From the NCBI GenBank assembly GCA_023267195.1, contig JAHFNT010000002.1, positions 23,830-87,829 of the forward strand: a DNA stretch of 64,000 nucleotides. The letters run 5' to 3'. The notes under the pieces were generated by a model that had not been told where the DNA came from, did no database searches, and saw only the letters and a list, made by a program, of their open reading frames with translations. Of this stretch, positions 8,801 through 60,725 are shown piece after piece. The DNA is from Candidatus Nomurabacteria bacterium. Its GTDB lineage: Bacteria > Patescibacteriota > Minisyncoccia > Phycocordibacterales > UBA9973. Made by a program: the position numbers and the translations under genes. Every line of letters begins with the position of its first letter. Within the stretch, counting starts at the first letter, position 1.

Positions 8801-10194
8801 ACGAACTGAAAGAAAAATGTGGAATCGTGGGCATATACGGGGCTTCGTTGCCTGTTTCTAGACTGGCGTTTTTCGCTTTGTTTGCGCTTCAACATAGAGG
8901 TCAAGAGGCCTCTGGCCTCACTACAAGCGACGGCAGAAAACTTCACACCCATAAAGGCGCCGGATTAGTGGCTCAAGTTTATAAAGAAAAAGATATAGAC
9001 AGTTTAAAAGGGTTTTTGGGTATAGGCCATAATAGATACTCGACCTCTGCCGGAGAAGCCCTAGACCATGCTCAGCCGGTGGTCAACGTGGAAAATTCTT
9101 TTGCGCTCGCCCACAACGGAAATCTGCCGAGTGTAAAAATGCTGGAGAAATTTCTTTCATCAAAAAAAATACCGACGAAGAACCACTCTGATTCTGAGCT
9201 TGTAACTGATGCTATTAGTTTTTATCTAAAAAATAATAATTCAATAATTGAGTCGGTGAAGAAAGTTTTCCCTCTGATTACCGGAGCTTTTTCTATGGTC
9301 ATGATGGATAAAAATAATTTAGTAGCGGTCCGAGATTCTTGCGGTATGCGCCCGCTATCGCTTGGCACTATAGGCAAGGGTTATGTTGTGGCTTCAGAAA
9401 CTTGCGCGCTCGATACAATCGGCGCATCTTTTGTGCGCGAAATAATCCCAGGAGAAATGATAATAATAAATAAAAATGGCTTAAAAAGCATAAAACTGGC
9501 AAAACCCAATCCCAAGCACGATATCTTTGAATACGTATATTTTGCCCGCCCAGATAGTATTTTTAATGGAAAATTAATTTATGAGGTAAGAAAAAACTTT
9601 GGCAAAACACTAGCACGAGAATGTTTGCTCAAAGTAGATATGATTGTACCTGTACCTGATACAGGCGTACCGGTGGCGCTCGGATACAGTGAAGTCTCAG
9701 GTATCCCTATGGAAATGGCCTTAGTGAAAAATCGCTACGTACATAGAACTTTTATTGAGCCTAGCCAAAAATCACGAGAACATAGCGTGGCTCTCAAGTT
9801 AATACCTTTAAAGTCAATACTAAAAGGTAAAACAATCGCCGTTATTGATGATTCAATAGTACGGGGAACAACCAGTAAAAGATTAGTTGAAACATTATTC
9901 AAGGCAGGCGCCAAGGAGGTTCATTTTTTAGTGTCCTCACCACCTGTGCGATATCCAGATTTTTACGGAATCGACACTCCGAAACAAAAAGAACTTATTG
10001 CTTCAAATAAAAATATTAAACAAATCAGAAAATTCCTAGGAGCCACCTCCCTCTATTTTCTATCACTCAAGGGTTTACTGGACTCAATCGGCCTACCCAA
10101 AGAACATCTATCCACTTCGCTTTTTACTGGTATTTACCCTATTGATCTAAAAGAAAGAAAACACGAAATAAATTATGATACCCCCAAAGAATAA
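8797..10194 (+). CDS. purF: Amidophosphoribosyltransferase
   Basis: The N-terminal nucleophile MNELKEKCGIVGIYG, the Ntn glutaminase domain and a C-terminal PRTase domain (VIDDSIVRGTT) are present. Confidence 0.9.
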   Translation: MNELKEKCGIVGIYGASLPVSRLAFFALFALQHRGQEASGLTTSDGRKLHTHKGAGLVAQVYKEKDIDSLKGFLGIGHNRYSTSAGEALDHAQPVVNVENSFALAHNGNLPSVKMLEKFLSSKKIPTKNHSDSELVTDAISFYLKNNNSIIESVKKVFPLITGAFSMVMMDKNNLVAVRDSCGMRPLSLGTIGKGYVVASETCALDTIGASFVREIIPGEMIIINKNGLKSIKLAKPNPKHDIFEYVYFARPDSIFNGKLIYEVRKNFGKTLARECLLKVDMIVPVPDTGVPVALGYSEVSGIPMEMALVKNRYVHRTFIEPSQKSREHSVALKLIPLKSILKGKTIAVIDDSIVRGTTSKRLVETLFKAGAKEVHFLVSSPPVRYPDFYGIDTPKQKELIASNKNIKQIRKFLGATSLYFLSLKGLLDSIGLPKEHLSTSLFTGIYPIDLKERKHEINYDTPKE

Positions 10195-43682: not shown

Positions 43683-45077
43683 TTATTTAGACAATTTTAT
43701 GCCTAGCTCTTTCAATTGCTTTTCTGTTATCGGTGCTGGAGAACCCATCATTAAATCTTTGCCTTCACCGGTCTTCGGAAACGCAATTACTTCACGAATA
43801 TTTGGTTCGTTTTGCAAAATCATTACAATACGATCGATGCCAGGAGCAAAACCGCCGTGTGGGGGGGCTCCGTAAGTAAACGCTTCGAGCATATGGCCAA
43901 ATTTTTTCCGCTGTTCTTCTTCAGAAATATTTAAAAGTTTGAAAACTTGCTTTTGAATATCTCTCTCATGAATACGAATACTACCAGAAGAAAGTTCGTA
44001 GCCATTTAGTACTAAATCATAAGCATTGGCGCGAATCGAAAATAAATCTTCGCCCTTCCTAAACTTTTCTTTATCTTCCTCTTTTATTGAACAAAACGGA
44101 TGATGTACTGCTTGAAGTTCTCCCTCGTCTGTTTTTTCAAACATGGGAAAATCTAAAACCCACGCAAAAGCAAGCTCGTTCGGGTCATCCTTGTTCACCC
44201 GCATGTCTGGTTTATCTGATTTATACTTTTCCATAGATTCGGCATAAGAAATTCTCGGAAAAGGAATTTGGGTTATTTTTTTCTCTGGATAAACATTTTT
44301 TATCAATTCAATAAACATTGCCTCGGTGTATTCCAGCACTTCTTCTTGAGTTATGAAAGACATCTCAAAATCAAGCTGAGTAAATTCTGGTTGTCTGTCC
44401 CCCCTTGTGTCTTCATCGCGCATACAACGCGCAATTTGAAAATATTTTTCAAATCCAGCCACCATGCAAAGCTGTTTGAACTGTTGTGGAGATTGAGGTA
44501 AAACATAAAAGTTTCCGTTAAAAAGTCTGGACGGGACCACATACTCACGAGAGCCTTCTGGCGTCCCTTTCATTAATATCGGAGTTTCAATTTCAATAAA
44601 ACCATTATCATGCATATATTTACGAAAAAAAGTAATTATTTTATCTCGCATACGAATATTTTTTTGCATTCTTTCGGTACGCAAATCGAGGTATTTATAT
44701 TTCATTCTCAAATCCTCATCTACATTAGAGGTACTCTCATTGATTTGGAAGGGTGCTGTTTCTGCTTTATTTAAAACTTCTACACCAATAACTTCCAGCT
44801 CCACATTTCCATTCAAAACATCCGCTTTTATATTTTTTTCTGGACGTTTATTTACCAGACCGGTAATTTTCAAAACCCACTCTGGCCTTATTTCTTTGGC
44901 TTTTTCTATTGCTTCAGTGTGGCTTGGAAGCGTCACGCATTGCACCTTGCCAGTCATATCTCGCATATCGAAAAATACCATTTTCCCTTGATCCCGCCTC
45001 ACGTCTACCCAGCCCGCAATAATGACTTCTTTGCCAATATGGTCTTTTAAATCTTTTATATATACTCTGTTACGCAT
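43683..45077 (-). CDS. aspS: Aspartyl-tRNA synthetase, short archaeal/eukaryote-like type (no GAD insertion)
   Basis: Class IIb motifs: an OB-fold N-terminus, FRDE-type motif 2 (ARCMRDEDTRGDRQPEFTQLDFEMSF) and motif 3 (GGFAPGIDRIVMIL). At 464 aa it is too short to carry the bacterial GAD domain. Confidence 0.8.
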   Translation of the reverse strand: MRNRVYIKDLKDHIGKEVIIAGWVDVRRDQGKMVFFDMRDMTGKVQCVTLPSHTEAIEKAKEIRPEWVLKITGLVNKRPEKNIKADVLNGNVELEVIGVEVLNKAETAPFQINESTSNVDEDLRMKYKYLDLRTERMQKNIRMRDKIITFFRKYMHDNGFIEIETPILMKGTPEGSREYVVPSRLFNGNFYVLPQSPQQFKQLCMVAGFEKYFQIARCMRDEDTRGDRQPEFTQLDFEMSFITQEEVLEYTEAMFIELIKNVYPEKKITQIPFPRISYAESMEKYKSDKPDMRVNKDDPNELAFAWVLDFPMFEKTDEGELQAVHHPFCSIKEEDKEKFRKGEDLFSIRANAYDLVLNGYELSSGSIRIHERDIQKQVFKLLNISEEEQRKKFGHMLEAFTYGAPPHGGFAPGIDRIVMILQNEPNIREVIAFPKTGEGKDLMMGSPAPITEKQLKELGIKLSK

Positions 45078-45099
45078 AAAATGATTGTAGCATAAAAAA

Positions 45100-46119
45100 T
45101 TAATTTCCGTTGTGCCAAAGTTCGGTTACCGAATCGCCGTTGTGCAAGTTGTCTATAATCTTGGCAAGCAGTTTAGAAGTTTCGATGATTTCAAGTTTTT
45201 TTATTTTTTTCTTGTTTTCCTCTGAAATACAAGAATCACTAAACCAAACAGCCTTGAAAGGCGCCTGGTTTAGATTTTCCACTGCTTCGCCAGAAAGTAT
45301 AGCGTGGGTCGCAGTAAAATATACATCTTTGGCACCATTTTCTTTTAAAGTTTTTAGCGCTTTTACTGCGGTACCGCAAGTGTCTGCCATATCGTCTGGA
45401 ATAATGCAGTTGAAACCTTTCGCCTCCCCGATTACTTCCATGACTTCATTATGATTAATTTTTTTGGGGTCGCGGAATTTATTTATGATAATAATATTTT
45501 CTGGAATTCCTAACTGTTGAGCTAGTTTTCGGCAAGCAGGCGCGGCACCCAAGTCTGGCGCCACGATTTTAAACTTTTCCAAATTAAATTTTTTTGAACG
45601 TATATGTTTTAAAAGAAGATCATTTACGTTTACATCGACAACAGGGATAGTCAGCGGATGCGCATTATAGCTTGAAGGATTATGCAGATGTAAAACTACA
45701 ATCCGATGCGCTCCAGCCATTTGTAAACGCATTGGAACTTTTTGGGAAAGCACAGGTTCTCGATGATTTGAAGGTTTGTCCTGTCTCGCATATGGCAGAC
45801 AAGGCATCACGACAGTAACACGGGCAGGCTCGCCTTGTTTCAAAGCATAAACCAGAGATTCGCATTCATCTAAGTCATTTGCCAATATTTCTTTATTTCC
45901 AAAACGTGGCTGAATAATCAAATAAACATCGCGGTCTCGGACCGACTCGGTATGATGGACTAAATATTCTCCATTTTTAAATTCTTTATAATTAACCGGC
46001 GCCAGCTTATTTTTTAAAAGTTTAGCAACTTTCAGCGCTAGAGTTTGATTGATTCCGTTCGGACTTCCGTATAACTTCAAAGGGTAAGGGTTCAAGTTTA
46101 TCTGATTTCCACTTGTCAT
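45100..46119 (-). CDS. prs: Ribose-phosphate pyrophosphokinase (PRPP synthetase), divergent
   Basis: Tandem PRTase-type domains and the PRPP-binding loop IIPDDMADTCGT. Confidence 0.75.
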   Translation of the reverse strand: MTSGNQINLNPYPLKLYGSPNGINQTLALKVAKLLKNKLAPVNYKEFKNGEYLVHHTESVRDRDVYLIIQPRFGNKEILANDLDECESLVYALKQGEPARVTVVMPCLPYARQDKPSNHREPVLSQKVPMRLQMAGAHRIVVLHLHNPSSYNAHPLTIPVVDVNVNDLLLKHIRSKKFNLEKFKIVAPDLGAAPACRKLAQQLGIPENIIIINKFRDPKKINHNEVMEVIGEAKGFNCIIPDDMADTCGTAVKALKTLKENGAKDVYFTATHAILSGEAVENLNQAPFKAVWFSDSCISEENKKKIKKLEIIETSKLLAKIIDNLHNGDSVTELWHNGN

Positions 46120-46151
46120 ATTAAAAATACTCTAGCATAAAAAAGAAAAAA

Positions 46152-46185
46152 TGGCGACCGGCTTCCGTGAAAGGAAGCTGGCCGC
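46152..46185 (-). terminator. Rho-independent terminator for a minus-strand transcript (GGCGACCGGCUUCC-GUGAAA-GGAAGCUGGCCGCC stem-loop plus U-tract)
   Basis: A 14-bp stem with one mismatch, followed on the minus strand by AUUUUUUCUUUUUU (the plus-strand A-run at 46139-46150), 20 nt upstream of the prs start codon. Coordinates in 46120-46620 may be off by 1 nt relative to the ORF track. Confidence 0.6.
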
Positions 46186-46189
46186 CAAT

Positions 46190-46620
46190 ACCCAGATAGT
46201 GCTGGACGCACAGCGGGGGGCCAGTTCCGCCGATCCGTGGCCCTACCTAAACGGCCAGTAGTGGTACACTCTTCCACCACCTCCCTTTAAGTGTTTTACT
46301 CTTTATGCTCGAATGCGTCGAGCGGCGCTAACTGGGAGAAACGCAGTTCTTGGTATCGAGTTCTACCCTAAGAGAAGCCTCGTCCCTGTTCCCTGTGGGG
46401 TAGCCAAATGTTCCAGTTACCACATTACGACAATCCACACAGGAAAGCATGATGATCCCGGCATGAAGCTTCTCGAGGTAAACCGACTTATTTACGCAAG
46501 AATGTACGCGAGTTTTGGTTTCCACCATTGGTCTACTCCTTTTTCTATTGTCGACGAACTAGGTGTTCTCGCGAAACGAGAACACCAGCCTTCGGTGGCT
46601 GGTGTTTGAGTTGTAAGTTA
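46190..46620 (-). ncRNA. GC-rich (~55-60%) structured transcript unit of unknown identity; contains a 66-aa Cys-containing ORF with an SD (46328..46528, minus strand)
   Basis: GC content is far above the ~35% background. The 5' region carries two partly overlapping stem-loops (46561-46585 GGUGUUCUCG-CGAAA-CGAGAACACC and 46582-46603 CACCAGCC-UUCGGU-GGCUGGUG). AAGGAG lies 8 nt before the ATG of the 66-aa ORF (MVETKTRVHSCVNKS...LSCVDCRN...). A GC-rich 3' region of about 140 nt ends in the terminator at 46152-46185. No RNase P, tmRNA, SRP or tRNA signature motifs were found. Confidence 0.3.
46561..46603 (-). promoter_or_regulatory. Pair of mutually overlapping stem-loops in the 5' leader of the GC-rich minus-strand unit
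   Basis: Stem-loop 1 (46561-46585) and stem-loop 2 (46582-46603) share the 4 nt CACC, so they form alternative, mutually exclusive structures. Both lie upstream of the SD/ATG of the 66-aa ORF. Confidence 0.3.
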
Positions 46621-46779
46621 TGTTTTTGAGTATTTTTACAGCGCAAATATCAGCCTTCGAAGACCTTTGGTAAAGCTGAAAAAGAAATAACTATTTGCTT
46701 GTATGTTGTTTTTATTCACAAGCACAGTATAGCGTATATTTTAAAAAAGACAAATTTAATTTGTGGATAAATTTAAAAT

Positions 46780-46813
46780 CGGCGACCGGTCCCATGAAAG
46801 AAACCAGTCGCCG
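46780..46813 (-). terminator. Second minus-strand terminator hairpin, sequence-related to the one at 46152-46185 (CGGCGACCGG-UCCCAUGAAAGAAA-CCAGUCGCCG)
   Basis: A 10-bp GC-rich stem followed on the minus strand by AUUUUAAAUUUA. Both hairpins share the GGCGACCGG arm and a GAAAG loop core. Confidence 0.5.
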
Positions 46814-46885
46814 ATGCGATGCGGTGGGCCAAGCCGCTTTTACCCCTCCGGCCCTAACGCCACTCAGGATCCCAAAGCATGCGGA

Positions 46886-47062
46886 TCACCTCCCTTCGAT
46901 CCTTGCCTCCGATCCCTTACCAGATAGTCTGAGCTCAGAACGCAGTCTTCTGTTTTCTTCCTTGAGTTGATCAATCTCATTCAACAACTTGTCGATTGCG
47001 TTTCTGAGTCTTTCTCCTTCGGTTTCGCTATTGATCCTGGCAAGCGAAAAGGAATCCCACAT
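46886..47062 (-). CDS. Small coiled-coil protein (58 aa) with strong Shine-Dalgarno sequence, inside GC-rich island B
   Basis: Minus strand: GGAGGTGAAATC-ATG, encoding MWDSFSLARINSETEGERLRNAIDKLLNEIDQLKEENRRLRSELRLSGKGSEARIEGR*. It is absent from the ORF track because it is under 60 aa. Heptad leucines are present, and a GC-rich 3'UTR follows, then the terminator at 46780-46813. Confidence 0.4.
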   Translation of the reverse strand: MWDSFSLARINSETEGERLRNAIDKLLNEIDQLKEENRRLRSELRLSGKGSEARIEGR

Positions 47063-47330
47063 GATTTCACCTCCAAAGAACGAAAATCAGCACTTCGATT
47101 GCGCTGTTTAATTAATTCCTTGTTTGGTTCGGTAGAAAAAAGAAATCAACAGAATAGCGCAAAAGCGGATGGTTTTGCGCCCCACCAAGATTTCGTTAAT
47201 GTATGTATTTTGTAGTTCTGTTTCATATTCATATTCTTTCACACCAATACTCTTGTATCTATGTACTAGTACATGATAACATGATAAAAAAATAATGCAA
47301 ATAATGCATGTGGATAAGTGGGATAAGAAA

Positions 47331-47651
47331 TTATTTACCCAACTTTTTGAACATTAAATTAAAACCGCCATTTTTATTGCGTAATTCACGAGATCCGCGA
47401 GTGACCGTACTAATACCGAGCCCTAAATCCCCCGCTACGGATCTATGGGTCTCTCCTTTATTTAATTTTTTAACTATTTGCCACCTTAAAGCCATAGTTT
47501 CAAATTCTGCGGGAGTAAAAATATCTATCAAGAACTCTGCCATTAAATTTTTATCACCATCAATTTTAGAAAAAACTTCTATTAATTCTTTCTTATATTC
47601 TGAGATTTTTTTGTTAACGTGCCTCATGTTTTGAACTTTAAAAATAATCAA
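47331..47651 (-). CDS. TrpR/YerC-YecD-family (Trp-repressor-like) DNA-binding protein
   Basis: FTPAEFETMALRWQIVKKLNKGETHRSVAGDLGLGISTVTRGSRELRN fits the TrpR-like helix-turn-helix pattern. The gene overlaps the 3' end of trpS. Confidence 0.7.
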   Translation of the reverse strand: MIIFKVQNMRHVNKKISEYKKELIEVFSKIDGDKNLMAEFLIDIFTPAEFETMALRWQIVKKLNKGETHRSVAGDLGLGISTVTRGSRELRNKNGGFNLMFKKLGK

Positions 47652-48645
47652 TCTGAACTCTCATGCGAACCTGTTTCATTGTTTCTTTCGCAATTTCTCG
47701 TGCGTGCATTGTACCTTTTTCTAATATCTTCATCACGGCATCTTTATCTTTTGCCAATTCTTCCCTTTTTGTTCGTATTGGCGCCACTAATTTCTCTAGA
47801 ACTTCAATTAACCTCTTTTTTATAACAACATCACCAAGTCCACCTTTTTTATATTGTTTTTTCAGTTCTGTAATTTCTTCTTTATTTGGATCAAAGATAT
47901 CTAAATAAGTAAATACAACATTCCCTTCTACTTTCCCGGGATCATTAACATGAATATGATTTGGATCAGTATACATATTCATTACTTTTTTTGAAATTTC
48001 TTCGTAACTATCTGAAAGATAAATCGCATTATTTAAGGATTTACCCATTTTTGAATTTCCATCAATACCAATCAATCTTGGAGTATCACCCACTAGATGT
48101 TTAACATGACTAAAAGTTTCTCCGTAAAAACGATTAAAATCGTCTACAATTTCATTGGTCTGCTCAATCATGGGCTTTTGATCTTCACCAACTGGAACAA
48201 TGTTACTATGACAAAATAAAATATCTGCGGCCTGAGAAACAGGATGCATTAAAAATCCAGCCGGTACATCTTCTCCATAACCTTTGTCTTTCATTTCATC
48301 TTTTACTGTTGGATTTCTCTTGAGCCGCGCTAGTGTTACTAAATTTAGAAACAATACCGTAAGTTCAGCTATTTCCGGAATTTCAGATTGAATAAACATA
48401 GTCGTTTTATTTGGATCAAGTCCACAAGCCAAGTTGTCCAGAACCACTTCTAGAACATTTTCCCTTACTTTAGTTGGATTATCTGCATTAGAAGTTAGGG
48501 CTTGAATATCGGCAACCATATAGAAAGATTTGTCTACCTTACCCTGAAGCTTGACTCTATTTTGTATTGAACCTACAAAGTGCCCAAGGTGAAGTTTCCC
48601 TGTTGGCCTATCCCCTGTAAGTACTATTTTTTGTTTATTTTCCAT
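47638..48645 (-). CDS. trpS: Tryptophanyl-tRNA synthetase
   Basis: Class I: a HIGH-type motif (GKLHLGHFVG) and KMGKS (KMSKS). A length of 335 aa is typical of TrpRS rather than TyrRS. Confidence 0.8.
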   Translation of the reverse strand: MENKQKIVLTGDRPTGKLHLGHFVGSIQNRVKLQGKVDKSFYMVADIQALTSNADNPTKVRENVLEVVLDNLACGLDPNKTTMFIQSEIPEIAELTVLFLNLVTLARLKRNPTVKDEMKDKGYGEDVPAGFLMHPVSQAADILFCHSNIVPVGEDQKPMIEQTNEIVDDFNRFYGETFSHVKHLVGDTPRLIGIDGNSKMGKSLNNAIYLSDSYEEISKKVMNMYTDPNHIHVNDPGKVEGNVVFTYLDIFDPNKEEITELKKQYKKGGLGDVVIKKRLIEVLEKLVAPIRTKREELAKDKDAVMKILEKGTMHAREIAKETMKQVRMRVQIDYF

Positions 48646-48758
48646 GTTTTTATATTATCATACTTCATGGCTTCAGCACAGGGATCTTTCCACATTTTAG
48701 TAACACCATTACGCACTTTTTAGCTTTGACAATTTTATGGCTATGCTAGAATGACGCC

Positions 48759-50171
48759 ATGGCTTCAATATCCGGAAAAGCAAAAATAGTAAAAAGTAAC
48801 AACTTAAGAATTCCACCACAAAGCATTCCTTCTGAACAAGCCGTCTTGGGCTCCATTATGCTCCGCAAGGACGCCATGCACGAAGTGGAAGACATGATAA
48901 CTCCCGATTCTTTTTATGTTGAAAAAAATAAATTGATCTTCCAAGCAATGCTTGATCTTTCGGTAAAAAACGAACCGATAGACATGCTCTCTCTTTCTAC
49001 TAAATTAAGCGAACAGAAAAATCTCGAGAGAATCGGAGGCAACCAATATCTGGCGGAAATTGTAAATACAGTCCCCTCTTCTACTAACGTAAAACACTAC
49101 GCTGACATAGTGCAAAAGAAATATGTGCTTCGCAGTTTGATTGAAGCCGCTGATTATGTTTCCGAGCTCGCCTTTGAAGAAGGTGATGATCATATGGATG
49201 ACATTTTAGATATGGCGGAGAAGAAAATTTTCAGCGTTGTTTCCAGTCCCAAAAACCAAAAATTTGTAAACTTGAAAGATGCTCTACCTGAAGCTTATGA
49301 GCGCCTAGAAAAATTGCATGAAAATAAAGGCATGTTGCGCGGACTGCCGACTGGCTTTAAAGAATTAGATACGATGCTTTCTGGTTTGCAAAAATCTGAT
49401 TTGATTATTCTAGCAGCCAGGCCGAGTATGGGTAAAACTACTCTCGCCCTCGATATTGCGCGCATGTCCGGAGTTTTGCATGAAAAATCTATTTTGATAT
49501 TTTCTCTAGAAATGTCTTCCCAGCAGTTAGTAGACAGAATGCTGTCTGCTGAAAGCCGAGTAAACGCCTGGAATTTACGCACAGGCCGGCTATCTTCTGA
49601 TCATGAATTTTCGCAACTACGCGATTCACTAGACAAACTTGCTAAAGCGCAAATTTTTATTGACGATCAGCCGGGAAATTCAATTGTTCGAATGAAGGCT
49701 CTGTCTCGCCGGCTCAAAGCGGAAAAAGGACTCGATCTTATCGTGGTGGATTATTTACAACTCATGACCACTTCCAAAAATTATGATTCGATGGTCAACC
49801 AAGTTACAGAAATTTCCAGATCGCTAAAATCTTTAGCAAAAGAATTGGATGTTCCTGTACTTGCTCTTTCGCAGCTTAACCGTGCCGTAGAATCCCGTGG
49901 CGGCAAACCCCGCCTATCGGACCTGCGCGACTCTGGATCTATCGAACAAGACGCAGATGTTGTGATGTTCATTCATCGTGAAGATAAAGGCAAAGAAGAA
50001 TCGGAGAAAACGAACATTGCCGAAATTCTTATCGAAAAGCACCGCAATGGCCCGACCGGCAAAGTGGAACTTTACTTTGACGAAAAAACTACAACTTTCT
50101 TAAATCTGGAAAAAAGCAATTTAAGCGAATTTGCTCCGTCGAAGATAAGCGGTGATTTAGATGAATTTTAA
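48759..50171 (+). CDS. dnaB: Replicative DNA helicase
   Basis: DnaB N-terminal domain (IPPQSIPSEQAVLGSIM), Walker A (ARPSMGKTTLALD), and an H4/RecA-like core (IVVDYLQLM; ALSQLNR). Confidence 0.9.
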   Translation: MASISGKAKIVKSNNLRIPPQSIPSEQAVLGSIMLRKDAMHEVEDMITPDSFYVEKNKLIFQAMLDLSVKNEPIDMLSLSTKLSEQKNLERIGGNQYLAEIVNTVPSSTNVKHYADIVQKKYVLRSLIEAADYVSELAFEEGDDHMDDILDMAEKKIFSVVSSPKNQKFVNLKDALPEAYERLEKLHENKGMLRGLPTGFKELDTMLSGLQKSDLIILAARPSMGKTTLALDIARMSGVLHEKSILIFSLEMSSQQLVDRMLSAESRVNAWNLRTGRLSSDHEFSQLRDSLDKLAKAQIFIDDQPGNSIVRMKALSRRLKAEKGLDLIVVDYLQLMTTSKNYDSMVNQVTEISRSLKSLAKELDVPVLALSQLNRAVESRGGKPRLSDLRDSGSIEQDADVVMFIHREDKGKEESEKTNIAEILIEKHRNGPTGKVELYFDEKTTTFLNLEKSNLSEFAPSKISGDLDEF

Positions 50172-51492: not shown

Positions 51493-51541
51493 TAACTTTT
51501 TGTTGTTAAATTTAGCATATGCTTAAATTCACAACCGTAAA

Positions 51542-51619
51542 CTAAAAAACGGGCTCGGAATTTCCTGGGCCCGCTTGCGTGTAGATGATGCCCCCTCCGC
51601 ACCACCCACACGCAAGCGG
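51542..51619 (-). terminator. Terminator region for the minus-strand GC-rich small gene (12-bp stem CCGCUUGCGUGU/ACACGCAAGCGG with a large loop, then GC clamp and U6)
   Basis: The stem arms lie at 51571-51582 and 51608-51619. Downstream on the minus strand is CGGGCCCAGGAAAUUCCGAGCCCG followed by UUUUUU (the plus-strand A-run at 51544-51549). Confidence 0.45.
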
Positions 51620-51625
51620 TAGTGC

Positions 51626-51904
51626 TTAACCCTTGTTGATCCATCCTTTGCCGGGAATGGATCGTTCGAGGGCATGCACCGTGACAGATATTGCCACCCC
51701 CAAACCCACCCCCAAACAAATCGAGACTAGGAGCATGAACCCACCGGGCCCTCCGTGGAGATCTCTGTACCGCTCAGGTATGTCGTCGTAGTAACGAGGG
51801 TTCTTTTGTTCCCACCGTTGTTCCCACTGATCGACACACACGAACAAGTACGCACCTGCGACCAGTATACTGAGACAGGCCAGGACAACAACGATTCTCT
51901 TCAT
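51626..51904 (-). CDS. GC-rich small membrane protein (about 92 aa, 2 TM), hypothetical; possibly horizontally acquired
   Basis: MKRIVVVLACLSILVAGAYLFVCVDQWEQRWEQKNPRYYDDIPERYRDLHGGPGGFMLLVSICLGVGLGVAISVTVH... About 55% GC against the ~35% background. An AGAGG SD sits upstream of the ATG at 51904, and the ORF-track start at 51949 is a further in-frame upstream candidate. Confidence 0.45.
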   Translation of the reverse strand: MKRIVVVLACLSILVAGAYLFVCVDQWEQRWEQKNPRYYDDIPERYRDLHGGPGGFMLLVSICLGVGLGVAISVTVHALERSIPGKGWINKG

Positions 51905-52001
51905 ACAAACCTCTGAACGGATTGTATCATACAAAAACACAAAAGTCAATAGTATCGAATCCTTATTTTATAAGGTTCTTTTGATTGTGCTAAAAAACAT
52001 T

Positions 52002-58970: not shown

Positions 58971-60725
58971 TTAGTACACTTCTTGCTGGTAACATTTTTC
59001 ACAATAAATCACCTCTGGCCGACCGGGCGCATAACTTGTTTCAAATTCTACCTCGCAATTCCCCGCCGCATGATTTGCATGATTTTCCTTATCACACATA
59101 CAACTTCTGTGCCATAGTTTCATTGGATTACGAACTTTCAACCTTGCATCATGACGACAACCAAAGCAAAGACGAGGTATCGGCACCCCTATTCTTTTAT
59201 ACAACCTAAATTCATCTTCTGTGATTCTAAACGCCCCAGAACAGCGATCTCCGCATTCTCTATTGTGTAAACAACTGATGATTTCTTTTGGGATAGATTC
59301 TTGTACGTCTTTAAAACTATCAGGCAGATCTTCGGCTTGTATTGTTATTTGATATTCATTGGTCTTTTTATCTCGCCATCTATATCCCCTTTTGAGAGCT
59401 TCATCTTTTGTTAAAGGAAAATAATCTTGAGCCTGGGTTTCATTGTAGCAAAATGTGGATAATTCCGATGGAAAAAATTCTCCATATTTATAAATGAGAC
59501 CTTTCTTGTCGACATACGACATTGTATTCATGTGCTCAATAATCTTCGGTAAAAGTTTTTCATATTCTTCTTTACTGTATTGTTTATTTAAAATACAATA
59601 ATTTTTATTTCTAAGGCCAATACAGCCAAATAAATTAGAGCAATTAAAACAATAAAAAGAATATTCAACATTTTTGGAACTGTAAACCACATTCGTAAAA
59701 AGACTACGAAAAGAACCCAGACCACCGTCAAAAACTTCATACATCAATTCACCAATACCTACCCCGGGACCCGCATCATACGAATCCTTGATCCGCAGAG
59801 CCCAGTGAAGATATTTAGAATCTTCAACCTGTCCGGCTGTGTCAAAACTATTTTGACAATTTTTTGTCCCTTCAAGATTATCACCCGTAGAATTTACGAC
59901 TTTTATTTGATTGGTAAAACGATGTAAGGCATTCAAATAAAATTCTTTAAATTTTTTATGCAATCTAAGAATAGTTGAATAACTGGTTAGATCAAGTCCA
60001 GCTAAACGCTTGGCATATTCTTCTTTGGAAAGTTGCTCATTCCACATACAATATGACTTGTTTCGGAGATTCGTACACCCAAAACAATTTATACAACCAT
60101 GACAATCGTACAGAAAGTACGAATCCACGCAATTCTTACAATTTAAAGAATACAAAACGTGATAACAATCTGAACAAAATATATCGTCATAACAAAGCTC
60201 AGAACGATGAACAACATATAAATCGGAACTATCCTTAATTTCTGAAACTCTATTGGAATAAAATGTTTTTTCTATTATAAAACACGCTGAAGTCATATAA
60301 CTATCTTTGCTATCTTCCGCGACATTACAATAATCACTATTTACTGCTTTTGAATTCGAAAGAGATTGTTGGGGAAAAATATCTCTCAATTCTTTCCATT
60401 GTTCAAAAAACGGCTTAGAAAAATTATATTCTTTGCCGTAAGCAACAGCGTCCCAACTATCACTCCACCAGTATTTTATGTCATAAACCACAAGTTTTTC
60501 ATCAGGATGATATATTGTAATAATATCTTCATGGTGACTAGAAGCATCGTTTTTTCTTTTATAAAGAGACATTTCGTTTCTCCAACACAAACGTCTAATG
60601 GTGCGGCATTCTGGGCAAAAAGTCGGCGGGGGGACTTTTATTTTTTCGTAAAAGTTAAAATCTTCGGGCTCTATGATAAAGTCTTGTTTACAGTTTTGAC
60701 ATATTTTATTTTCACTTTTATACAT
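58971..60725 (-). CDS. Cysteine-rich multi-zinc-ribbon protein, paralog P5 (tandem with P4)
   Basis: CQNCKQDFIIEPEDFNFYEKIKVPPPTFCPECRTIRR; CINCFGCTNLRNKSYCMWNEQLSKEEY; LFGCIGLRNKNYCILNKQYSKEEY; ends ...VIYCEKCYQQEVY. Confidence 0.8.
   Translation of the reverse strand: MYKSENKICQNCKQDFIIEPEDFNFYEKIKVPPPTFCPECRTIRRLCWRNEMSLYKRKNDASSHHEDIITIYHPDEKLVVYDIKYWWSDSWDAVAYGKEYNFSKPFFEQWKELRDIFPQQSLSNSKAVNSDYCNVAEDSKDSYMTSACFIIEKTFYSNRVSEIKDSSDLYVVHRSELCYDDIFCSDCYHVLYSLNCKNCVDSYFLYDCHGCINCFGCTNLRNKSYCMWNEQLSKEEYAKRLAGLDLTSYSTILRLHKKFKEFYLNALHRFTNQIKVVNSTGDNLEGTKNCQNSFDTAGQVEDSKYLHWALRIKDSYDAGPGVGIGELMYEVFDGGLGSFRSLFTNVVYSSKNVEYSFYCFNCSNLFGCIGLRNKNYCILNKQYSKEEYEKLLPKIIEHMNTMSYVDKKGLIYKYGEFFPSELSTFCYNETQAQDYFPLTKDEALKRGYRWRDKKTNEYQITIQAEDLPDSFKDVQESIPKEIISCLHNRECGDRCSGAFRITEDEFRLYKRIGVPIPRLCFGCRHDARLKVRNPMKLWHRSCMCDKENHANHAAGNCEVEFETSYAPGRPEVIYCEKCYQQEVY

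Follow-up and report, generated by a model that had tools for sequence, protein, structure and literature searches.

The 64,000-nucleotide stretch of the Candidatus Nomurabacteria contig JAHFNT010000002.1 analysed here (hereafter the window) has an average GC content of 0.38, and within it a run of genes encoded on the minus strand comprises trpS (48645–47638), a trpR-like gene with a Trp_repressor domain (47651–47331), a GC-rich island B, an AT-rich spacer, a GC-rich island A, prs (46119–45100) and aspS (45077–43683); dnaB lies near by at 48759–50171. A preliminary description of this DNA had pointed out the two islands, and a GC scan confirmed them as sharp features (46123–46347 for island A and 46759–46965 for island B) that peak at 0.63 over 120 nt. 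Island B carries an open reading frame of 58 codons (ORF58, 46886–47062), and the subject of this work is the control region in front of that frame, the frame itself and the short module behind it. All genes, promoters and RNA elements ascribed below to the cassettes around the islands are on the minus strand.

Relatives of the locus were collected via the TrpR-like protein, which gave 16 genome loci and then 18 further loci from metagenomes or metagenome-assembled genomes, all of them from Patescibacteria (Candidatus Nomurabacteria, Paceibacterota) and designated below by L numbers. The order trpS, trpR-like gene, a variable stretch of 0.8–4 kb, (prs) and aspS holds throughout these relatives. 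By blastn ORF58 itself is missing from these loci, and what is conserved instead are two blocks around it: Block 1, the 250 nt that had earlier been read as a promoter and a 5′ untranslated region (UTR), and Block 2, situated in the AT-rich DNA that separates island B from island A.

A tryptophan (Trp) leader-peptide attenuator of the classical type can be read in the 270 nt ahead of ORF58, and this leader, with the promoter and palindrome described below, recurs in about 30 related loci. The leader frame (47146–47232, with the conserved start at 47226) encodes M(NM)KQNYKIHTLTKSWWGAKPSAFALFC-stop and contains the tandem Trp codons UGGUGG at 47187–47182, the stop codon UGA being at 47148–47146; in L001 the peptide reads MKNNFKINKLSKFWWSTEASAFALFC-stop. 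Of the 18 loci in the first set, 13 have leader frames of 26–31 amino acids (aa) with two adjacent Trp residues (WW), as do most of the 18 new ones. RNAalifold, run on 15 sequences, independently gave three hairpins in this region, namely hairpin 1, a middle helix and a terminator. Hairpin 1 (regions 1:2, 47156–47181, also found by scanning) stands right behind the Trp codons, and 93% of its cells in the alignment are paired, with three pairs changed on both sides. The middle helix GAUUUCU/AGGAAUU (47114–47147) holds regions 2 and 3 together, its 5′ arm running over the leader stop codon, and is 99% paired; its covariation support is weak because the helix is nearly invariant. The attenuator terminator (regions 3:4, 47075–47108, with the hairpin at 47106–47088 and the U-run UUUUCGUUCUUU) ends 1 nt ahead of the Shine–Dalgarno (SD) sequence of ORF58 and has compensatory changes at three pairs.

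The antiterminator (regions 2:3, 47100–47161) pairs UGCGCU at 47161–47156 with AGCGCA at 47105–47100 and shares nucleotides with both hairpin 1 and the terminator hairpin. In the alignment its columns 42–47 and 117–122 are paired in 98.9% of cells, as against 17–63% when the partner is slid along, and two of its pairs are changed on both sides. The terminator state as a whole is 93.9% paired with seven pairs changed on both sides, a score reached by 0 of 500 shuffles. Column 47 covaries both with column 13 and with column 117, and column 117 covaries with column 133, which is the signature of alternative 1:2, 2:3 and 3:4 pairing; it is by this covariation that the alternative hairpins predicted for the leader are shown. 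The geometry also fits the E. coli model, as judged from the footprint sizes of ribosomes: UGGUGG abuts the 5′ arm of hairpin 1, and the UGA is located 8 nt past region 2. Clustered Trp codons, a terminator before the gene, an antiterminator that excludes it and a suitable position for stalling are thus all found in one leader. From the codons, and from the occurrence of trpE, trpB or trpC in the same slot of the relatives, we infer that the switch would respond to Trp.

The leader is preceded by a promoter, located by scanning at 47273–47301 (-35 TTTGCA, 17-nt spacer, extended -10 TGtTATCAT), both hexamers of which are conserved across the loci in the multiple alignment. The direct repeats previously reported here do exist (ATGATAA twice, at 47273 and 47281, and ATAATGCA twice, at 47292 and 47301), but only one copy of each is conserved in the relatives, and it is these copies that form the -35 and the extended -10. 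The palindrome GTACTAGTAC (47263–47272), suggested at the same time as an operator, gained substance. It is the core of ATGTACTAGTACAT (47261–47274), which overlaps the -10 and the expected transcription start, and G[TC]ACTAGT[GA]C is found in all 18 loci of the first set and in all new loci where the region is present, L009 and L012 having the symmetric variant GCACTAGTGC. ATGTACTAGTACAT combines palindromy, GNACT/CTAG half-sites and overlap with the promoter, as an operator should, and it matches both halves of the TrpR consensus TGTAcTnGT..ACnAgTACA (motif TGTAcTnGTnnACnAgTACA; PMC9413887). This match, the conservation in related loci and the adjoining trpR-like gene make the palindrome a candidate operator for the adjacent TrpR-like protein. 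The sequence ATAGATAC that flanks it is only half-site-like.

A box GTTATCCACA, identical to the DnaA-box consensus, was also found at 47309–47317, about 8–12 nt upstream of the -35, and is present in about 15 of 18 loci in the alignment; the window contains three copies, the third being at 59454. Perfect DnaA-box-like sequences TTATCCACA occupy 47309–47317 and 46762–46770, each about 8–12 nt before the -35 of a leader promoter, and the first of them is conserved as GTTATCCACA in most related loci. These boxes could be either a transcription-factor site or a DnaA site.

The TrpR-like protein matches PF01371 with E = 7e-16, above the cut-off, and scores below the cut-off of TIGR01321; its best match in the PDB is E. 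coli TrpR (E = 7e-6). In the alignment to the latter the DNA-contacting R69, I79, T81, T83 and R84 are kept, as well as T44 and R54. The roles of these residues in TrpR are partly a matter of general knowledge. For the rest we follow a published account, which also describes the HisR/YerC type, and the residues kept in the TrpR-like protein are unlike that type (PMC9413887). The closest long relative, L019, has a second Trp_repressor-domain gene (8816–9205, 129 aa) about 3.5 kb downstream and on the opposite strand.

The first gene after the leader in the window is ORF58. Its SD sequence GGAGGUGA (47067–47074) stands 4 nt ahead of the ATG and corresponds to the perfect GGAGGTGA at 47074–47067 that had been noted in front of this unannotated frame; the second GGAGGTGA, at 46893–46886, does contain the TGA stop, as had been said of it. 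Among 5.8 billion proteins ORF58 has one homolog, P0001 (69 aa, 69% identity), encoded on the 1.3-kb Logan contig L001 and syntenic, immediately behind a Trp_repressor gene. An exhaustive HMMER search of 1.84 billion representatives left P0001 as the sole true homolog, the remaining matches being long coiled-coil proteins, so that the family has two members among about 1.8 billion representative proteins. The sole match of a metagenome scan, L002, proved to be a false positive, as its MWDSFSLA is located inside a 482-aa protein of a GC-rich organism. In the first 44 codons ORF58 and P0001 differ by 13 synonymous and 10 non-synonymous changes, and the Nei–Gojobori ratio of non-synonymous to synonymous substitution rates (dN/dS) is 0.13 over codons 1–44 and 0.23 overall. 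An example of synonymous replacement in the nucleotide alignment is KLL, written AAGTTGTTG in one and AAACTACTC in the other. Both alternative frames contain stops. ORF58 is therefore a real, unannotated and lineage-specific small gene.

The coiled coil proposed for its product turned out to be a canonical leucine zipper of four heptads, with L19, L26, L33 and L40 at d and I23, I30, N37 and L44 at a, every one of these positions being kept in P0001; at least four heptads, Leu at d, hydrophobic residues or Asn at a, and a continuous helix are what defines such a zipper. AlphaFold predicts one helix over residues 2–56 with a predicted local distance difference test score (pLDDT) of 81, reaching 97–98 in the core, and no transmembrane segment was found. 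Searches of PDB, Pfam and NCBIfam returned only generic coiled-coil matches below threshold. The affinities to ZapB, FtsB, antitoxins or IS3 OrfA suggested earlier were accordingly not borne out: the bit scores against the respective cut-offs are 17 and 28.9 for DivIC, 16 and 31.5 for ZapB, 15.8 and 30 for YabA, and 17 and 42 for FtsL, and at ORF58 there is neither a helix-turn-helix domain nor an adjacent transposase or toxin partner, the locus being a syntenic housekeeping one. The product is a leucine-zipper protein, probably dimeric, and would be made under Trp limitation. Our best guess is that it serves as a protein-binding adaptor or regulator acquired as cargo.

In the relatives the slot taken here by ORF58 may be occupied by genes of the Trp pathway itself. 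L004 has a true TrpE (TIGR00564, 542 > 517.7) and L015 a true TrpB (TIGR00263, 575 > 392), L022 contains a PALP/TrpB-like gene and L026 an indole-3-glycerol phosphate synthase (IGPS)/TrpC gene. Over L003–L036 the content between the trpR-like gene and aspS or prs is hypervariable, and its GC content is often above that of the host genome. It also includes PPDK_N and other phosphoenolpyruvate (PEP)-utilising enzymes, an Asp/Glu racemase, DIT1_PvcA, a PIF1 helicase, several proteins of 250–480 aa with no Pfam assignment, and Trp-rich mini-proteins such as those of L009 (74 aa, 8% Trp, with a homolog in L026) and L007 (5.6% Trp). Several cargo frames begin with Met-Trp (MWD.., MWEA.., MWEG..; window 47062–47057, L009 4663, L012 4693), so that the second codon of genes which would be transcribed only when Trp is limiting is itself a Trp codon. 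In L026 (3500–4035) the order is different, the operator-promoter being followed by a small Trp-containing frame with its own terminator and only then by a WW leader and attenuator (MKTKFKLKKSWWSAENIVLALFC-stop), immediately upstream of trpC.

Behind ORF58 there is a tail that the preliminary description had taken for a GC-rich 3′ UTR. The GC richness stands, but this is not a passive tail, being instead a conserved unit of a mini-ORF, an RNA switch and a terminator. The unit is known in seven copies, sought by scanning for SD-preceded short frames with at least two Trp codons, and is built of a strong SD, a mini-ORF rich in Trp and Asp, two helices that exclude each other, and a terminator. 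In the window the mini-ORF MLWDPEWR-stop, with two Trp codons, is present as described before (46854–46880) and starts 5 rather than 6 nt past the ORF58 stop; its extended SD AGGGAGGUGAUCC (46883–46895) includes that stop, and SD sequences of the same kind occur in L017, L019 and L009. The homologous mini-ORFs are MSLWDDWWQ-stop in L017, MAWSSDDDWWF-stop in L009, MGWSDDWWF-stop in L019 and MWGLVDWF-stop in L033–35; they share a long AAGGGAGGUGAUCC-like SD and a stop abutting helix S1, followed by helix S2 and then by a strong terminator. Between the window and L001 the tail is better conserved than the C-terminus of ORF58, and the DNA of the mini-ORF is identical. In L001 the TGA is replaced by TGG with a 1-nt insertion, which fuses the mini-ORF in frame to the ORF58 ortholog (..RRWPSMLWDPEWC-stop). 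An in-frame read-through past the UAG was also considered and is excluded, since indels within the terminator break the frame.

The two helices (46821–46854) are S1, GGGCC (46854–46850) with GGCCC (46830–46826), and S2, GCGG (46837–46834) with CCGC (46824–46821). They were tabulated by script, the MAFFT alignment of the tails being out of register, and both are kept in 7 of 7 copies, with compensatory changes in L017 (GGAGCC/GGCUCC) and L033 (GGGUC/GACCC and GAGG/CCUC). An H-type pseudoknot can be discarded, since the loop of 1–2 nt between S1b and S2b cannot span S1, and S1 and S2 therefore cannot coexist. The free RNA prefers S1 in 6 of the 7 copies, and S2 appears when the first 15 nt are masked, as might be done by a ribosome at or near the mini-ORF stop in this folding model. 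The terminator hairpin noted earlier is confirmed at 46815–46778 with its U-run, and forms with a 16-bp stem the intrinsic terminator of the cassette (46766–46815). In L033–35 the tail directly follows the terminator of Block 2 with no cargo gene. That the tail alone sits behind the attenuator in L033 suggests that the tail is what has been conserved as output, cargo genes being inserted in front of it. It is conceivable, though rather doubtful, that the tail represents a new kind of ribosome-gated 3′ RNA switch, the mini-ORF of which would report tRNA-Trp charging or free Trp sensed through peptide arrest. If true, the tail would couple amino-acid starvation to the fate of the mRNA or to the activity of the overlapping aminoacyl-tRNA synthetase (aaRS)/phosphoribosyl pyrophosphate (PRPP) synthetase promoter.

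Taken together, the data make it probable that Trp-dependent repression and ribosome-mediated attenuation control ORF58 and the mini-ORF/RNA-switch/terminator module behind it. Island B would then be the payload and the 3′ end of a Trp-controlled unit that starts downstream of the trpS and trpR-like genes. Its sigma-70-type promoter with the extended -10 would be repressed by the adjacent TrpR-like protein at the overlapping palindrome, and the start of the transcript would first code for the leader peptide with its tandem Trp codons. When tRNA-Trp is charged, the ribosome would proceed to the UGA and cover region 2, allowing the 3:4 terminator to form ahead of ORF58. When charged tRNA-Trp is scarce, the ribosome would stall on UGG-UGG and mask region 1, region 2 would pair with region 3, and the RNA polymerase would enter ORF58. 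The mini-ORF would be translationally coupled to ORF58, and its ribosome would toggle the exclusive helices S1 and S2 before a constitutive terminator.

Several observations weigh against such an arrangement. The palindrome is a single CTAG-centred one of 14 bp and not a 20-bp TrpR operator with two half-sites 8 bp apart. The antiterminator helix has just 6 bp, plus the stacked middle helix, and Rfam Trp_leader (RF00513) is not matched between 44000 and 50000 even at E <= 1. In a few loci there is just one Trp codon (SWRG) or no leader (L010, L014, L016), and the cargo varies extremely, most of it having no relation to Trp. The tail terminator is predicted whatever the ribosome position, under all masks tried. 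The dN/dS of ORF58 is based on a single pair, because there is only one ortholog, and the response to Trp, the binding of the repressor and the translation of the small frames are all deduced from sequence.

Block 2 (46574–46770) is a paralogous second leader. It has its own box TTATCCACA (46770–46762), a promoter TTGTCT/TATACT found by scanning (46753–46726), a peptide VNKNNIQANSYFFFSFTKGLRRLIFAL-stop with a GUG start (46719–46636), an antiterminator GGCUG (46655–46651) and a terminator with a U-run (46605–46582). Pairing is complete (100%) in the terminator, where four pairs are changed on both sides, and reaches 97.8% in the antiterminator; the peptide has a Phe-rich aromatic core, and its frame is kept across indels of three and six bases in L004, L009, L001 and L010. 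The GUG is right at the predicted transcription start. After this attenuator every locus has a small Cys-rich frame, a different one each time.

In the window Block 2 is followed by ORF66 (46528–46328), which together with a degenerate tail and a terminator makes up island A (46129–46528). Tail A comprises UGGUGG at 46279–46274, S1/S2 from 46243 and the terminator at 46186–46153; it aligns to tail B and keeps S1/S2, and the UGG-UGG is in frame past the ORF66 stop with the start codon absent. The ORF66 frame stays open for 26 codons past its UAG (46247–46330), through the UGG-UGG and up to a second UAG that abuts S1. ORF66 may have been recently truncated and have formerly had a C-terminus that included the Trp-rich tail peptide, the fused L001 being a parallel. 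Extended -10 promoters of the TGnTAAAAT-like kind are conserved in front of prs and aspS (46129–46157 and 45078–45100), and terminator and promoter overlap. The -35 of the prs promoter, TCGCCA at 46157–46152, is part of the 3′ arm of terminator A, and its extended -10 is TGCTAGAGT at 46137–46129; TCGCCA stands exactly 17 nt before the prs or aspS extended -10 in the window, L016, L019, L033, L010 and L011. The GGCGACC/GGUCGCC arms are conserved because the 3′ arm of the terminator doubles as the -35 of prs or aspS. Since this promoter stands only about 9 nt before the ATG, the mRNA would seem to be leaderless.

The two leader peptides are alike (MKNNFKINK.. and VNKNNIQAN.. at the start, ..AFALFC-stop and ..LIFAL-stop at the end), and the same is true of the tails, terminator arms and TTATCCACA boxes of the two cassettes. 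The earlier suspicion that the islands are a related or duplicated module thus appears sound, and they are best explained, on this sequence comparison, as a tandem duplication of the whole cassette of box, promoter, leader peptide, cargo and tail. Part of the evidence first given for it has to be dropped. The 9-mer CCAGATAGT said to be common to both islands had been placed at 46190 and 46927; its true positions are 46192 and 46920, and a third copy lies at 9550. The match between the islands is due to chance and carries no weight: the two sites are non-homologous, one in a tail and the other in the coding sequence of ORF58, and about one shared 9-mer is expected between two stretches of 500 nt.

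The arm GGCGACCGG and the TGAAAG of the loop, by contrast, are indeed shared by the two terminators, and together with the alignable tails and a cargo that varies and exceeds the host in GC content at many loci they might be seen as traces of a dispersed mobile or repeated element, such as a REP- or MITE-like hairpin, an integron attC site, an IS3 OrfA remnant or a toxin–antitoxin pair. We regard this as highly improbable. The idea of a dispersed hairpin did not survive inspection of the 64 kb, where GGCGACCGG occurs only at 46153 and 46781, in two adjacent islands. Searches of phage and plasmid collections by blastn gave zero matches, and scans of viral contigs for the tail and for operator-plus-UGGUGG patterns gave counts equal to chance, located in coding regions. 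Integrase, transposase and partner gene are absent at the locus, the -35 role of TCGCCA explains the conservation of the arm in six loci, and tandem duplication of the leader–cargo–tail cassette explains the copies best. An equally slim chance is given to the view that ORF58 is no gene and represents a structured non-coding RNA or a spurious frame in horizontally acquired GC-rich DNA. A GC-rich island in an AT-rich genome, a single homolog and the lack of a Pfam or NCBIfam assignment would agree with it; the excess of synonymous changes, the interrupted alternative frames, the perfect SD with its ideal spacing and the regular heptads conserved at all a and d positions would not. Folding of the ORF region, moreover, is no better than that of shuffled sequence (z = -1.75 for the whole transcript). 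Rfam, searched at E <= 1 over 44000–50000 and at the gathering score over the window and 17 loci, yielded only a 19-bit match to CC2171 that is put down to chance, and ARAGORN found no tRNA or tmRNA.

A further explanation concerns the tail, which might be a second attenuator, responsive to Trp or Asp, that governs whether transcription continues into the next cassette or, in the case of island A, into prs-aspS. The Trp- and Asp-codon-rich mini-ORF with its very strong SD and its end exactly at S1, the ancestral position of the module immediately upstream of aspS or prs, and the switching of S1/S2 with ribosome position all speak for it. A conserved antiterminator was, however, found in none of the copies, constraint folding of five tail copies gave the GC-rich terminator of 13–16 bp in every state, on which ground the classical attenuator was rejected, and prs and aspS have their own conserved promoter past the terminator. 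We therefore hold such a function of the tail to be unlikely.

Two other observations concern the surroundings. The trpS genes at the same syntenic position are of two very different types among the loci, the tryptophanyl-tRNA synthetase (TrpRS) of the window being about 66% identical to those of L003 and L010 and only about 35–38% identical to those of other loci among L003–L018. A third GC-rich island, at 51530–51950 on the minus strand, contains a 107-aa frame (51949–51626) with hydrophobic segments and only weak Pfam matches, followed at about 51540–51620 by a strong hairpin with a U-run; it may be another acquired small gene.

Patescibacteria, also known as the candidate phyla radiation (CPR), are ultra-small and mostly uncultured episymbionts thought to be devoid of amino-acid biosynthesis, and to our knowledge very little is known about their gene regulation. 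Full-text searches of the literature turned up no description of leader-peptide attenuation for CPR, Patescibacteria or Parcubacteria. The locus would place in this lineage the classical two-tier control by Trp, a TrpR-type operator plus attenuation, together with a paralogous leader of the Phe type. The switch is conserved while the payload turns over, from trpE, trpB and trpC to PEP-utilising enzymes, Trp-rich mini-proteins and orphans, ORF58 among them. Such a pattern points to an expression slot, inducible by starvation, in which foreign genes of higher GC content are captured, and the slot may be relevant to the dependence of these bacteria on their hosts. The locus also offers a handle on translation-coupled regulation, on the discovery of small proteins and on the mini-ORF/RNA-switch module near leaderless aaRS promoters.

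Some of the elements described here have counterparts in well-studied systems. The peptide of Block 2 (..SYFFFSF..) resembles those of E. coli pheL and pheM in having a run of Phe codons before a covarying terminator/antiterminator, but its GUG start is apparently leaderless, it is paralogous to the Trp leader found near by, at the same locus, and it precedes small orphan Cys-rich frames rather than pheA or pheST. TnaC and other arrest peptides share with the tail a short Trp-containing frame in which a ribosome near the stop would remodel the downstream RNA. The mini-ORF, however, has only 8–11 aa, the W12-D16-P24 spacing is absent and a Rho-independent terminator follows, which leaves arrest in the present case purely hypothetical. 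The trpL attenuator RNA rnTrpL and the leader peptide peTrpL of Sinorhizobium are reported to act in trans; they are unrelated to our locus in sequence, but the system is likewise a leader-peptide Trp attenuator, and it is relevant because leader and tail are conserved here while the cargo is not, so that their products might have functions of their own.

In the anti-TRAP operon of B. subtilis a leader peptide with several Trp codons, rtpLP, is combined with the small regulatory protein AT, a zinc-binding protein of 53 aa under T-box control that is made only at low tRNA-Trp charging; rtpLP is a very short multi-Trp frame situated upstream, it gates the translation of AT, and its stop overlaps the SD. 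The likeness to our locus, drawn from general knowledge of that operon, would consist in a small protein (53 versus 58 aa), made only at low tRNA-Trp charging and linked to a Trp-codon mini-ORF by an overlap of SD and stop. The mini-ORF is downstream in our case, and ORF58 is a leucine zipper dissimilar to AT.

The closest parallel in organisation is the trp operon of E. coli. Both would have a TrpR-family protein with a CTAG-centred palindrome over the promoter, a short leader frame with tandem UGG codons, the alternative 1:2, 2:3 and 3:4 pairing, and an intrinsic terminator just upstream of the gene, and in relatives of our locus the regulated gene is trpE, trpB or trpC. There is, however, no similarity in sequence or to the Rfam family RF00513; the leader here has 26–28 aa, its stop is past region 2, inside an extra middle helix, and the operator is a single palindrome of 14 bp. 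The unit described here comes behind trpS and trpR and belongs to a CPR bacterium that possesses little if any of the Trp pathway, its payload is hypervariable and in the window consists of an orphan leucine zipper, and it ends in a second Trp-rich module, that of the mini-ORF.

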